From Escherichia coli (lineage in GTDB: Bacteria > Pseudomonadota > Gammaproteobacteria > Enterobacterales > Enterobacteriaceae), in NCBI RefSeq assembly GCF_003790525.1, contig NZ_CP033635.1: DNA of 64,000 nucleotides; one strand, 5' to 3'. The position numbers and the translations under genes were made by a program. Positions 16,636 through 51,915 of the stretch are shown here, piece after piece; the stretch's first letter is position 1; each line of letters starts with the position of its first letter. The notes beneath the pieces were generated by a model, which saw only the letters and a list, made by a program, of their open reading frames with translations, was not told the DNA's origin and ran no database searches.

Positions 16636-16663
16636 GTCAAAAAAAACGCCGGATTAACCGGCG
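16636..16663 (-). terminator. intrinsic terminator downstream of fadD
   Basis: Minus strand ACGCCGG-TTAAT-CCGGCGT followed by TTTTTTTT. Confidence 0.7.
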
Positions 16664-16683
16664 TCTGACGACTGACTTAACGC

Positions 16684-18369
16684 TCAGGCTTTATTGTCCA
16701 CTTTGCCGCGCGCTTCGTCACGTAATTCTCGTCGCAAAATTTTTCCGACGTTAGATTTCGGTAACTCATCACGAAACTCCACCAGCTTCGGTACTTTGTA
16801 GCCCGTGAGCTGACGGCGGCAAAAAGTCACCAGTGACTCTTCGGTAAGCGATGGATCTTTTTTCACAACGAAGATTTTCACCGCTTCACCACTAGAGCCG
16901 GAAGGTACGCCAACAGCCGCGACTTCCTGTACGCCAGGATGCTGCATGACGACATCTTCAATCTCGTTGGGATAGACGTTAAAACCGGAAACCAGAATCA
17001 TGTCTTTTTTACGATCGACAATGCGCAGGAATCCTTCTTCATCCATCACCGCGATGTCGCCGGTGTGTAACCAGCCATTTTTGATGATTTCATCGGTAGC
17101 ATCCGGACGCTGCCAGTAACCCAGCATCACCTGCGGTCCTTTGACACAAAGCTCACCTGGTTGACCAGGTGGTACTTCATTATCATCATCATCCACCAGT
17201 TTGGCTTCCGTCGACGGCACCGGCAAACCGATGCTACCACTATGATAATCAATATCATACGGGTTAACGCTCACCAGCGGCGCACACTCGGTCAGGCCAT
17301 AACCTTCCAGCAGATACTGTCCAGTCAGTTTCACCCAACGTTCTGCCACCACTTGCTGAACAGGCATCCCTCCGCCTGCGGAAAGATGCAGACTGGAGAA
17401 ATCCAGCTGCTGGAACTCTTTATTGTTCAGCAACGCATTGAACAAGGTGTTAACGCCAGTGATAGCGGTAAACGGATATTTCGCTAACTCTTTTACCAAC
17501 CCTGGAATATCGCGCGGGTTAGTGATAAGCAGGTTCTGCCCCCCCAGTTCGATAAACAGCAGGCAGTTAATGGTCAGTGCAAAAATGTGATACAGCGGCA
17601 GCGCCGTCACCACCAGCTCTTTGCCCGGATGCAACAGCGGACCATAGGTCGCGTTAACCTGTTCCAGGTTCGCCAGCATATTGCGGTGAGTCAGCATCGC
17701 GCCTTTCGCCACACCAGTGGTACCGCCGGTGTATTGCAGGAAAGCTAAATCTTCCGGCACCAGTTCGGGTTTGACGTACTGCATCCGGTAGCCGTTGTGC
17801 AGGGCGCTACGAAATGAAATGGCATCTGGCAGATGGTATTTCGGCACCAGACGCTTGATGTATTTAACAACGAAATTGACTACCGTGCCTTTTGCCGTAG
17901 ATAGCTGATCGCCCATACGGGTCAGAATTACGTGCTGAACGGCGGTTTTATCAACCACTTTTTCCAGAGTGTGGGCAAAGTTAGACACGATAACAATCGC
18001 CGATGCGCCGCTATCGTTAAGCTGATGCTCAAGTTCACGCGGGGTATACAACGGGTTAACGTTTACGACAATCATCCCGGCACGCAAAATGCCAAACAGC
18101 GCCACCGGATATTGCAATAAATTAGGCATCATCAACGCAACGCGATCGCCTTTCTTCAGTCCCAACCCTTGTTGCAAATAAGCGGCAAACGCGCGACTGC
18201 GTTCTTCCAGTTTGCGGAAGGTCATCACCTCCCCCATATTCACAAACGCGGGTTGATCGGCGTAGCGCGCGACCGACTGCTCAAACATATCTACCAGAGA
18301 TTGATAACGGTCAGGGTTGATCTCCGTCGGAACGTCCGCGGGATAACGGTTAAGCCAAACCTTCTTCAA
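16684..18369 (-). CDS. fadD: long-chain-fatty-acid--CoA ligase FadD, 561 aa
   Basis: ORF 16684..18435; the 561-aa product begins [33 protein letters not shown]..., implying a TTG start at 18369; AMP-binding motifs present. Confidence 0.93.
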
Positions 18370-33881: not shown

Positions 33882-34084
33882 GTTATGAATTTAGCCAAAG
33901 CTATGTTTAGTGTATTTTTAATAATCAGACATAGCTTAGGCTATATTACCTCTTCCCTTATTTGTTATTTATTTTAACGTTTCATTGATATATAAATCTA
34001 AATGAAAATCGTTATCAATAAAGTGATGAAATAATATATTCCAACAGTTGTTTTATATTCTCAAAATATGTTAAGGTTGCGCCC

Positions 34085-34215
34085 TCATTTGGGGAGTAGC
34101 CGATTTCCAGATTCCGGAAATGTACGTGTCAACATACTCGTTGCAAAACGTGGCACGTACGGACTGAACACTTTCAGTCAGGCGAGACCATATGCACATC
34201 AATCGCTATGCCTGC
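34085..34215 (+). promoter_or_regulatory. Mn2+-sensing yybP-ykoY riboswitch in the mntP 5' leader (approximate bounds)
   Basis: Conserved UUGGGGAGUAGC (34090..34100) and ACAUACUCGUUGCAAAACG / CAGGCGAGACC elements within a roughly 230-nt leader upstream of mntP; mntP is known to carry this riboswitch. Confidence 0.7.
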
Positions 34216-34309
34216 ATGAACGCGAAAACCATCGCGGTTTGTTGTTCATGTATGCATGTTTGCTGGGGGCGATGATGTGTTTTATGGATACCCCGGTCAG
34301 GACGTTGTC

Positions 34310-34876
34310 ATGAATATCACTGCTACTGTTCTTCTTGCGTTTGGTATGTCGATGGATGCATTTGCTGCATCAATCGGTAAAGGTGCCACCCTCCATAAAC
34401 CGAAATTTTCTGAAGCGTTGCGAACCGGCCTTATTTTTGGTGCCGTCGAAACCCTGACGCCGCTGATCGGCTGGGGAATGGGCATGTTAGCCAGCCGGTT
34501 TGTCCTTGAATGGAACCACTGGATTGCGTTTGTGCTGCTGATATTCCTCGGCGGGCGAATGATTATTGAGGGTTTTCGTGGCGCAGATGATGAAGATGAA
34601 GAACCGCGCCGTCGACACGGTTTCTGGCTACTGGTAACCACCGCGATTGCCACCAGCCTGGATGCCATGGCTGTGGGTGTTGGTCTTGCTTTCCTGCAGG
34701 TTAACATTATCGCGACCGCATTGACCATTGGTTGTGCAACCTTGATTATGTCGACATTAGGGATGATGGTTGGTCGCTTTATCGGCTCAATTATTGGGAA
34801 AAAAGCGGAAATTCTCGGCGGGCTGGTGCTGATCGGTATTGGCGTCCAGATCCTCTGGACGCACTTCCACGGTTAA
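34310..34876 (+). CDS. mntP: manganese efflux pump MntP (YebN), 188 aa
   Basis: ORF 34256..34876; ATG at 34310 ([21 protein letters not shown]...) gives 188 aa. Confidence 0.92.
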
Positions 34877-35682: not shown

Positions 35683-35775
35683 GACAACTCCGGCAGGATA
35701 CTAAAGGCCGCAAGTGTAACGCGAATCACGCGGCGGGCAAATATCCGAACGCCAGGAGCGAAGATAAAGCAAAGT

Positions 35776-35803
35776 AAAAAGCCTCGCATTCGGCGAGGCT
35801 TTA
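35776..35803 (-). terminator. intrinsic terminator downstream of cspC
   Basis: Minus strand AAAGCCTCGCC-GAAT-GCGAGGCTTT followed by TT. Confidence 0.7.
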
Positions 35804-35847
35804 TAGCGAGATTGAAGCGTATTCACACTTCAGATCAGTGGATTCGA

Positions 35848-36057
35848 TCAGATAGCTGTTACGTTAACAGCTGCCGGACCTTTCTGGCCGTCCTGAATTT
35901 CGAACTCAACGTTCTGACCTTCAGCCAGAGTTTTGAAGCCATTACCCTGGATAGCGGAGAAGTGTACGAACACGTCTTTGCTGCCATCAGCCGGAGTAAT
36001 GAAGCCAAAACCTTTAGACTCGTTGAACCACTTAACCTGACCTTTAATCTTTGCCAT
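35848..36057 (-). CDS. cspC: cold shock-like protein CspC, 69 aa
   Basis: Full-length ORF; [22 protein letters not shown]... with RNP motifs. Confidence 0.97.
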
Positions 36058-36069
36058 TTGAAAAATTCC

Positions 36070-36213
36070 TTAGATTGTTTTCTTCGCCCGCAGGCATAAC
36101 ATAGATAAAACTGACACATTACTGCATGAGGCACCAATATAAGGCTCGGCAGAGAAGCGGTATTCAACGTCAACGTGTTTACTCAGGACTTCTTTACTGA
36201 AAATGCCACACAT
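36070..36213 (-). CDS. yobF: small protein YobF, 47 aa
   Basis: Minus-strand translation [47 protein letters not shown]; ends 12 nt upstream of cspC (yobF-cspC operon). Confidence 0.82.
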
Positions 36214-36882
36214 AAACAGAACTGTACCTCGTTTAACCCGAAATCTGTTATCACATACAACGTTAATTATGGCAAGCCATTTTTAAACATGTCTCGATCA
36301 GACGCACAAATCTCGATACGTCTTCCACTTTTTTTGCACACTTATGCAACGGAATACGCGCCGATATATCATTGTGCTTAACCTTGCCAGTTCAGGCAGA
36401 TACTTAAACTGACGTATTTTCTAACATAGTTCAATAAGTTCAGTTGTTCCATGCCAATGGGAGAAGTTATTACATAGTGCGTGCAATATCACATTTTCTG
36501 CTATGCAATGAATAAAAAGTTATATCACTTTTTCTCATAAAACAGTCAGTTAACGGCCATCAATCACCCCAAAGAGAAGTCAATCGCCAAAGGTATTGTA
36601 AATTTAAAATAAGAAAAATTGATGAATGCGCAAAAAAATCAAGAGAGAAACGTTTCGCTAATAAATAATACCACGCTTAATCACAAATCCGATGTAAACA
36701 TCCTAATAAATTAATGGGCTAAATATCTTTTTCTGATATCCCGTTACGCAAATAAATAATATGATAATTATTTGAAGTCAGACCAGAGTTTTAATTTGAA
36801 GCAGTTGCACCATGACAGTGCGTATAATCAGGATGAATTGAGTAACCCTTCAACGACGGGGTTACTCAAGATTGAGGAAGGA

Positions 36883-51591: not shown

Positions 51592-51725
51592 CAATATTTT
51601 CCTCCCGCGCTAAAGATCACATAATCTTAACAAGAATGTTAAAAAACGCTGGACTCAGACAGTAGAGTGTGTGTTATGGTTGACTATAAAGTCAGCGAAG
51701 GGAATGCTTCTGGCTTTTAACAGAT

Positions 51726-51828
51726 AAAAAGAGACCGAACACGATTCCTGTATTCGGTCCAGGGAAATGGCTCTTGGGAGAGAGCCGTGCGCTAAAAGTT
51801 GGCATTAATGCAGGCTTAGTTGCCTTGC
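51726..51828 (-). ncRNA. sdsR: small regulatory RNA SdsR (RyeB)
   Basis: Minus strand reads GCAAGGCAACUAAGCCUGCAUUAAUGCCAACUUUUAGCGCACGGCUCUCUCCCAAGAGCCAUUUCCCUGGACCGAAUACAGGAAUCGUGUUCGGUCUCUUUUU, matching remembered SdsR including its 3' terminator hairpin and U-tail; sigma-S-type -10 (CTATTCTTAA) just upstream. Confidence 0.85.
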
Positions 51829-51915
51829 TCTTTAAGAATAGATGACGACGCCAGATTTTCCAGTTTGCGTGCAAAATGGTCAATAAAAAGCGCGGTGGTC
51901 ATCAGCTTAAATGTT

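Follow-up and report, generated by a model that had tools for sequence, protein, structure and literature searches.

A covarying helix beside the ribosome-binding site in the manganese riboswitch leader of Escherichia coli mntP

The riboswitch of Escherichia coli K-12 mntP (yebN), which controls a Mn2+ exporter gene, has been described in several studies (Dambach et al., 2015; Prakash et al., JBC 2024; Stephen et al., NAR 2025), and a crystal structure of the apo aptamer is available (PDB 4Y1M). In the K-12 aptamer, Mn2+ is bound between L1 and L3, which locks P1.1, the switch helix. If Mn2+ is lacking, P1.1 and L1 come apart once the transcript is ~205 nt long, and the 3′ strand of P1.1 re-pairs into the platform. 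Co-transcriptional DMS probing of mntP found a single platform helix, a switch at ~nt 205 and, at the ribosome-binding site (RBS), no reactivity that clearly depended on Mn. Mn2+ induced mntP translational fusions 7.5-fold and 16-fold in separate reports, and Rho terminates transcription in the untranslated mntP leader and the early ORF, which Mn partly relieves. According to the classical model, as it is paraphrased in PMC10197570, Mn disfavours an RBS-proximal stem-loop.

The E. coli alx (ygjT) leader belongs to the same yybP-ykoY family and, like mntP, is a translational ON switch for a Mn exporter with P1.1 as the switch helix. In the published alx model, the RBS pairs in the Mn-free state with the freed P1.1/L1 rising strand, and RNAalifold proposed the same kind of pairing for mntP. 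Unlike mntP, alx has no P2 (a three-way junction), a different L3, an intrinsic terminator and a response to alkaline pH, and its platform consists of several helices, whereas that of mntP is a single long helix. The transcriptional members of the family (Lactococcus lactis yoaB, Xanthomonas oryzae) share the aptamer with mntP, and in them too a downstream strand invades P1.1 in the absence of Mn2+, forming a hairpin that holds the P1.1 3′ strand. However, the hairpin of the transcriptional members is an intrinsic terminator with a U-tract, whereas the mntP hairpin is followed after 3 nt by a C-rich element (c) and the Shine–Dalgarno sequence (SD) and carries a loop complementary to c.

In this study, we analysed a 64,000-nt stretch of E. 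coli DNA (the window) in which mntP lies between yobD and rlmA. A 1-kb stretch of this locus was matched in 5422 of 5426 complete E. coli genomes. The riboswitch of the window is orthologous to the K-12 element and occupies the same yobD-mntP-rlmA locus, with a leader of the same length (225 nt). The yobD-mntP spacer was identical to that of strain SMS-3-5, and K-12 MG1655 differed from it at seven positions over 428 nt without any change in length. Four of these substitutions lie in the leader, at 34169 (P4 loop), 34234 and 34238 (variable apical hairpin) and 34304 (the gap between SD and AUG), and MntP itself carries one amino-acid change. The aptamer core elements, the platform helix, element g (the loop segment complementary to c), element c and the SD are all identical in the two strains. 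The leader of the window differs at four non-core positions from the K-12 sequence for which Mn2+ binding and an expression response have been reported by ITC, reporters and probing.

The coordinates of the features are collected in Table 1. The promoter block was conserved at 80% or more in the 78 aligned Enterobacteriaceae leaders, and its geometry predicts a transcription start at ~34084-34085, consistent with the published numbering of A11 (L1) and A48 (L3). Mapped onto the window, that numbering puts +1 at 34085, which gives the 225-nt untranslated region. The initial annotation had placed a leader of roughly 230 nt at 34060-34309; a leader is indeed present, but positions 34060-34084 belong to the promoter. 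An earlier position of 34311 for the mntP start was likewise corrected to 34310. The leader folded into a more stable structure than its shuffled counterparts (z = -4.3, none of 200 as good). Further upstream, ~140-195 nt before the mntP start, a 19-nt inverted repeat with 89% complementarity (AATTTAGCCAAAGCTATGT / ACATAGCTTAGGCTATATT) occupies 33888-33947. We take this repeat to resemble the operator palindromes of MntR, and it accounts for spurious miRNA-family matches in a permissive Rfam scan.

Table 1. Features of the mntP locus in window coordinates; "x" joins the two strands of a helix.
Feature	Position	Strand	Description
mntP core promoter	34048-34077	+	-35 TTGTTT 34048-34053, 18-nt spacer, extended -10 TGtTAAGGT 34069-34077
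81-aa ORF, not a gene	34068-34313	+	ATG in promoter; no Pfam match; frame and stop unconserved; absent from RefSeq
mntP 5′UTR	34085-34309	+	225 nt; published numbering mapped onto the window; K-12 same length
yybP-ykoY Mn2+ aptamer	34085-34197	+	RF00080 match; RNAalifold on 78 leaders
P1.1	34086-34092 x 34188-34194	+	Three pairs with compensatory changes
L1 GGGGAGUAG	34091-34099	+	Invariant in 77/78 orthologous leaders
P1.2	34099-34101 x 34181-34183	+	RNAalifold, compensatory changes
P2	34103-34108 x 34116-34121	+	RNAalifold, compensatory changes
P3	34122-34131 x 34151-34160 and 34139-34142 x 34147-34150	+	RNAalifold, compensatory changes
L3	~34132-34138	+	Conserved ...CAACAUAC... with Mn-contacting adenosine
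P4	34162-34168 x 34173-34179	+	RNAalifold, compensatory changes
Strand a	34188-34206	+	P1.1 3′ (falling) strand plus 12 nt; 5′ half of anti-P1.1 helix; pairs with 34269-34287
Lineage-variable apical hairpin	34207-34256	+	Inserted at the platform-helix tip; 0-52 nt in other genera
Element g (GCUGGGG)	34262-34268	+	Loop/bulge immediately 5′ of a′; complementary to c
Strand a′	34269-34287	+	3′ half of anti-P1.1 helix; outer UAUGG 34283-34287 displaces P1.1 rising strand
Element c (CCCCGGU)	34291-34297	+	3 nt after a′, 1-2 nt before SD; pairs with g
SD-like AGGAC 34299-34303 and mntP start codon 34310-34312	34299-34312	+	Sequence
mntP CDS	34310-34876	+	188 aa; Pfam PF02659 Mntp, E 2.4e-55; RefSeq annotation in K-12, SMS-3-5

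We conclude, with a probability of about 95%, that the mntP 5′UTR of the window carries the yybP-ykoY Mn2+ riboswitch, which acts as an ON switch for the exporter MntP. The element had been recognised in the initial annotation, and this is borne out by its orthology to the K-12 riboswitch, which has been studied by crystallography, reporter assays and probing during transcription. Both motifs named there are present (TTGGGGAGTAG at 34089-34099 and GGCGAGACC at 34181-34189), and the joint motif pattern matched once in the 64 kb, with no match in 100 dinucleotide shuffles (0 expected). The comparative set consisted of 80 orthologous loci taken from genomes of Enterobacteriaceae species, 78 leaders of which were aligned. 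From these leaders RNAalifold recovered the four-way junction with P1.2, P2, P3.1/3.2 and P4, and compensatory changes occurred in 21 of 47 pairs. P1.1 contains conserved non-canonical U.U and G.A positions besides its compensatory pairs, and the L3 segment GUCAACAUAC (34128-34137) was invariant in the alignment, the published A48 corresponding to A34132. The aptamer sits in the 5′UTR directly upstream of its exporter gene, and the translational control of mntP proposed in the initial annotation agrees with the literature. Since this riboswitch has been known and characterised since 2015, its identification adds nothing new by itself.

The covariance-model check of this assignment came out divided. 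RF00080 matched 34083-34179 in a local scan with 41.9 bits (E 5.4e-10), but this score is below the gathering score of 45, and no Mn riboswitch was listed when the whole window was scanned against Rfam at the gathering threshold. The leaders of K-12, Salmonella, Klebsiella and Enterobacter also fell below the cut-off, Cedecea passed it narrowly at 46.4 and distant relatives scored 50-94. Because the sub-threshold score is shared by K-12 and other Enterobacteriaceae, it is a property of the model and not of the locus. In Rfam 15, the last helix/"loop" of RF00080 encloses ~75 positions that look like a GC-rich platform or a terminator and are deleted in enterics. The gathering cut-off is thus operational and no defining property of the family. 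The RefSeq records of K-12 and SMS-3-5 have no riboswitch annotated at the mntP leader because of this score. Elsewhere in the window, matches at the gathering level, in regions 51722-51866, 16640-16725 and 35773-36233, were to the SraC/RyeA-SdsR/RyeB antisense sRNA pair, to sroD and to a cspA-type thermoregulator, the last spanning the cspC 5′UTR and coding sequence on the minus strand.

The 3′ strand of P1.1 also forms part of a long second helix, a:a′, which RNAalifold found unaided. With the apical insertion excised, its 13 inner pairs were 95% canonical, nine of them with compensatory changes, and none of 500 shuffles was equal. In the outer part of this covarying 18-bp helix, UAUGG (34283-34287) pairs with CCAUA (34188-34192), which makes it a rival of the P1.1 rising strand in binding the 3′ strand of P1.1; the position of this outer a′ strand fits the switch reported at ~nt 205. 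In unconstrained ensembles of 15 species, the platform helix had probabilities of 0.44-0.99, and forcing P1.1 cost 7-13 kcal/mol in nearest-neighbour models, in keeping with reports that folding has to take place during transcription. The comparisons show the platform as a single long helix with the P1.1 3′ strand in it and a lineage-variable hairpin as its cap, and nearest-neighbour models give this helix as the default fold. The initial annotation had proposed that the stretch just before the mntP start (GGGGGCGAUGAUGUGUUUUAUGGAUACCCCGG) pairs with the RBS region. This pairing was not above chance (-15.1 kcal/mol, with 56 of 500 shuffles as good); the real partner of GGGGGCGAUGAUGUGUUUUAUGGAUACCCCGG is the P1.1 3′ strand with the nucleotides that follow it (-24.5 kcal/mol, 0/500 shuffles), which occupies it in the Mn-free ensemble of the window sequence with a probability of 0.99. 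The GGGG and CCCC ends of GGGGGCGAUGAUGUGUUUUAUGGAUACCCCGG form the conserved g:c helix, which abuts the SD without containing it.

A core of ~79 nt, GCGAGACC-AUAGAYACAUCAACUGC-UGUUUACUGGGG-GCAGUGAUGUGUCAUAUGG-AUAU-CCCCGGUC[A/U]GGAC-N6-AUG, was present in all genera, and the block CCCGGUC[A/U]GGAC was conserved in the aligned leaders. The apical hairpin that tops the platform helix is missing in Enterobacter, Kosakonia, Leclercia and others, and it is 12 nt shorter in other Escherichia species. The g:c pairing was 99.4% canonical in enterics, and in the Cedecea clade two of its positions carried compensatory changes. Altogether, 55 distinct g/c combinations were found, and compensatory changes extended to distant lineages, where the two elements can be wholly different in sequence yet complementary (GGUCGGGCA/UGCCCGACC, GGUCGGACG/CGUCCGACC and UCCGGGGCGGAC/GUCCGGCCCCGGA). 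Over 110 unique platforms, in which a′ was defined by duplex search, the median energy of the g:c duplex was -12.9 kcal/mol vs -8.4 kcal/mol for shuffled loops; p was 0.05 or less in 58% of the platforms and 0.002 in GC-rich lineages. The tether from a′ to c had a median length of 2.5 nt. The SD starts 0-2 nt past c, and in some lineages the g:c helix overlaps 2-3 nt of it (L092, L103). As judged from these comparisons, both the platform helix and the g:c helix are under selection. As an alternative partner for c, RNAalifold offered UUGGGG of L1.

The distant platforms came from a metagenome scan with a DNA pattern that yields many chance matches, and of 120 stretches the 51 with a correctly placed L1 were used. 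These 51 aptamers precede MntP, UPF0016-type and antiporter-type genes. At five metagenome contigs (L093, L120, L135, L149 and L185), the SD beside c drives an upstream ORF of 25-42 codons with a poorly conserved peptide. The gene that follows is of the antiporter type (MTGL..ELA.MLVVILVAAE.FTNALEHLG), and the UGA of the upstream ORF overlaps its AUG as AUGA, suggesting that riboswitch control at the antiporter-type loci may be exerted through translational coupling.

An 18-bp helix with a 3-nt tether should leave no room for g:c, so that the g:c helix and the full platform helix would exclude each other. In the modelled ensembles, g:c appeared only with P1.1 forced, at probabilities of 0.34 in E. 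coli, 0.66 in Citrobacter and 0.74-0.92 in Buttiauxella/Cedecea. We therefore favour g:c as a helix of the Mn-bound state, in which c would be kept from pairing with inhibitory partners and the SD would be left at the helix end; this assignment is tentative, and we give it somewhat less than an even chance. Published work has shown that Mn2+ locks P1.1 and that the platform strand invades it without Mn2+. In the proposed continuation, when P1.1 keeps CCAUA, the outer 5 bp of the platform helix would be stripped, the tether would lengthen to 8-11 nt and a pseudoknot of the inner helix and g:c would become sterically possible. This pseudoknot would keep c from its inhibitory partners, with the SD exposed at the helix end, and the resulting translation would also shield the transcript from Rho. 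The L1/rising strand, once freed, may be one such inhibitory partner; pairing of this kind has been published for alx, and RNAalifold proposed it for mntP. The full proposal goes further: a ligand-dependent g:c pseudoknot, possible only when the Mn2+-locked P1.1 shortens the hairpin, would present the SD and would replace classical sequestration, in an architecture that recurs before MntP, UPF0016-type and antiporter-type exporter genes of distant proteobacterial lineages. In this extended form the proposal is possible but doubtful.

Two partners for the Mn-free state were rejected. By analogy with alx, the rising strand/L1 might act as a general sequestrator of c and the SD; its complementarity to the RBS was not significant across lineages (median p 0.21 over 110 platforms), although the pairing is possible in enterics, where RNAalifold picks it. 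Freed L1 paired with mntP codons 5-9 in single-sequence minimum free energy structures (AGUAGC x GCUACU, GGGGAG x CUYCUC), but no better than with synonymous recodings of these codons (mean -10.7 vs -9.7 kcal/mol, median p 0.30), and the third position of Ala5 varies. In the same region of mntP, Leu8 and Leu9 (window 34331-34336) are almost always encoded by CUU/CUC in place of CUG (58/78 and 47/78), a codon choice that produces a pyrimidine tract, CUYCUY, at +22 to +27. The nearest-neighbour ensembles of 15 species, in which pseudoknots are not represented, gave no consistent change in SD/AUG accessibility between the states. This counts against the last step of our proposal, as do the published probing at the RBS, the classical model, in which Mn acts against a stem-loop near the RBS, and the lineages in which g:c covers part of the SD.

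Classical sequestration assigns the same g:c helix to the opposite state: without Mn2+, a GGGG...CCCC hairpin, extended towards the SD, would hide the RBS, and Mn2+ would disfavour it. The riboswitch is the same in both accounts, and only the state assignment of g:c differs. The strong conservation of g:c and its closeness to the SD, up to overlap in a few lineages, are what sequestration would lead one to expect, and RNAduplex weakly extended the pairing across AGGAC in E. coli. However, the stretch between g and c is taken up by the P1.1 3′ strand when Mn2+ is absent, according to both the modelled probability for the window sequence and the covariation, and the short tether would make that helix incompatible with g:c. 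In addition, the probability of g:c was 0.00 in the unconstrained ensembles of 13 of 15 species, the core helix ends just short of the SD in most lineages, and no Mn-dependent reactivity has been reported at the RBS. We consider sequestration by g:c somewhat less likely than our own placement of g:c in the Mn-bound state, which stays tentative.

Two further explanations leave g:c aside, and both are very improbable. The leader might mainly be a transcription attenuator, as a pattern scan reported a terminator-like hairpin at 34221-34236 followed by GTTTGTTGTT, and the equivalent of a:a′ is an intrinsic terminator in other yybP-ykoY members. The scan found two terminator-like sites in total against 1.3 expected, and the hairpin lies within the variable insertion that is absent from many genera; it is specific to the strain, the K-12 change G->A at 34234 weakens its stem, strand a′ is followed by AUACCCC without a U-tract and mntP gave no terminated transcripts in vitro (2025 study). 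The intrinsic terminator was therefore rejected. The other explanation starts from the 81-aa ORF, which, or a shorter ORF in its frame, might be translated as a leader peptide coupled to mntP. As the initial annotation stated, this frame exists and overlaps the mntP start in another frame, with its TGA (34311-34313) sharing ATGA with the mntP ATG. ATGs at 34248, 34272, 34275 and 34284 open same-frame ORFs of 21, 13, 12 and 9 codons, all ending at this overlap, GGGGG (34265-34269) is located 5 nt before the ATG at 34275, and the five distant antiporter-type loci have riboswitch-proximal upstream ORFs with the same type of ending. Another ATG, at 34256, is in frame with mntP and would add 18 aa to MntP.

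The initial annotation did not regard the 81-aa ORF as a gene, and we agree. Its ATG (34068-34070) lies inside the extended -10 element, ahead of the point where transcription starts, and this triplet is conserved although the ORF is not because it is part of the promoter. The product had no Pfam match at E<=1, the frame is not annotated in the RefSeq records of K-12 and SMS-3-5, and stops in its phase were scattered from -180 to +1, with the frame staying open as far as mntP in just 8 of 78 leaders. The ATGA overlap is a consequence of the Asn2 codon, and Salmonella has ATGC. For the ATGs at 34256 and 34248-34286, no frame was conserved across genera. The AUG of the conserved UAUGG lies at -25 to -28 and falls in all three frames across genera, the -28 class running out of frame into mntP. 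These upstream AUGs are conserved because they are halves of covarying base pairs. The promoter ATG and the unconserved frames and stops indicate that the ORF and its sub-ORFs are by-products of the conserved RNA structure, and a leader peptide in this frame was rejected.

In practice, the standard annotation route misses a validated riboswitch in E. coli and in most Enterobacteriaceae, and where the annotation is missing, spurious ORFs like the 81-aa frame can be called. For the riboswitch itself, the covariation of g and c together with the tether constraint is a modest, testable addition to a known system. How Mn2+ binding reaches the RBS is a question of the 2025 literature, which the g:c covariation and the short tether narrow to a few testable mutants. 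If true, an SD-presenting pseudoknot would explain why probing found no Mn-dependent change at the RBS.
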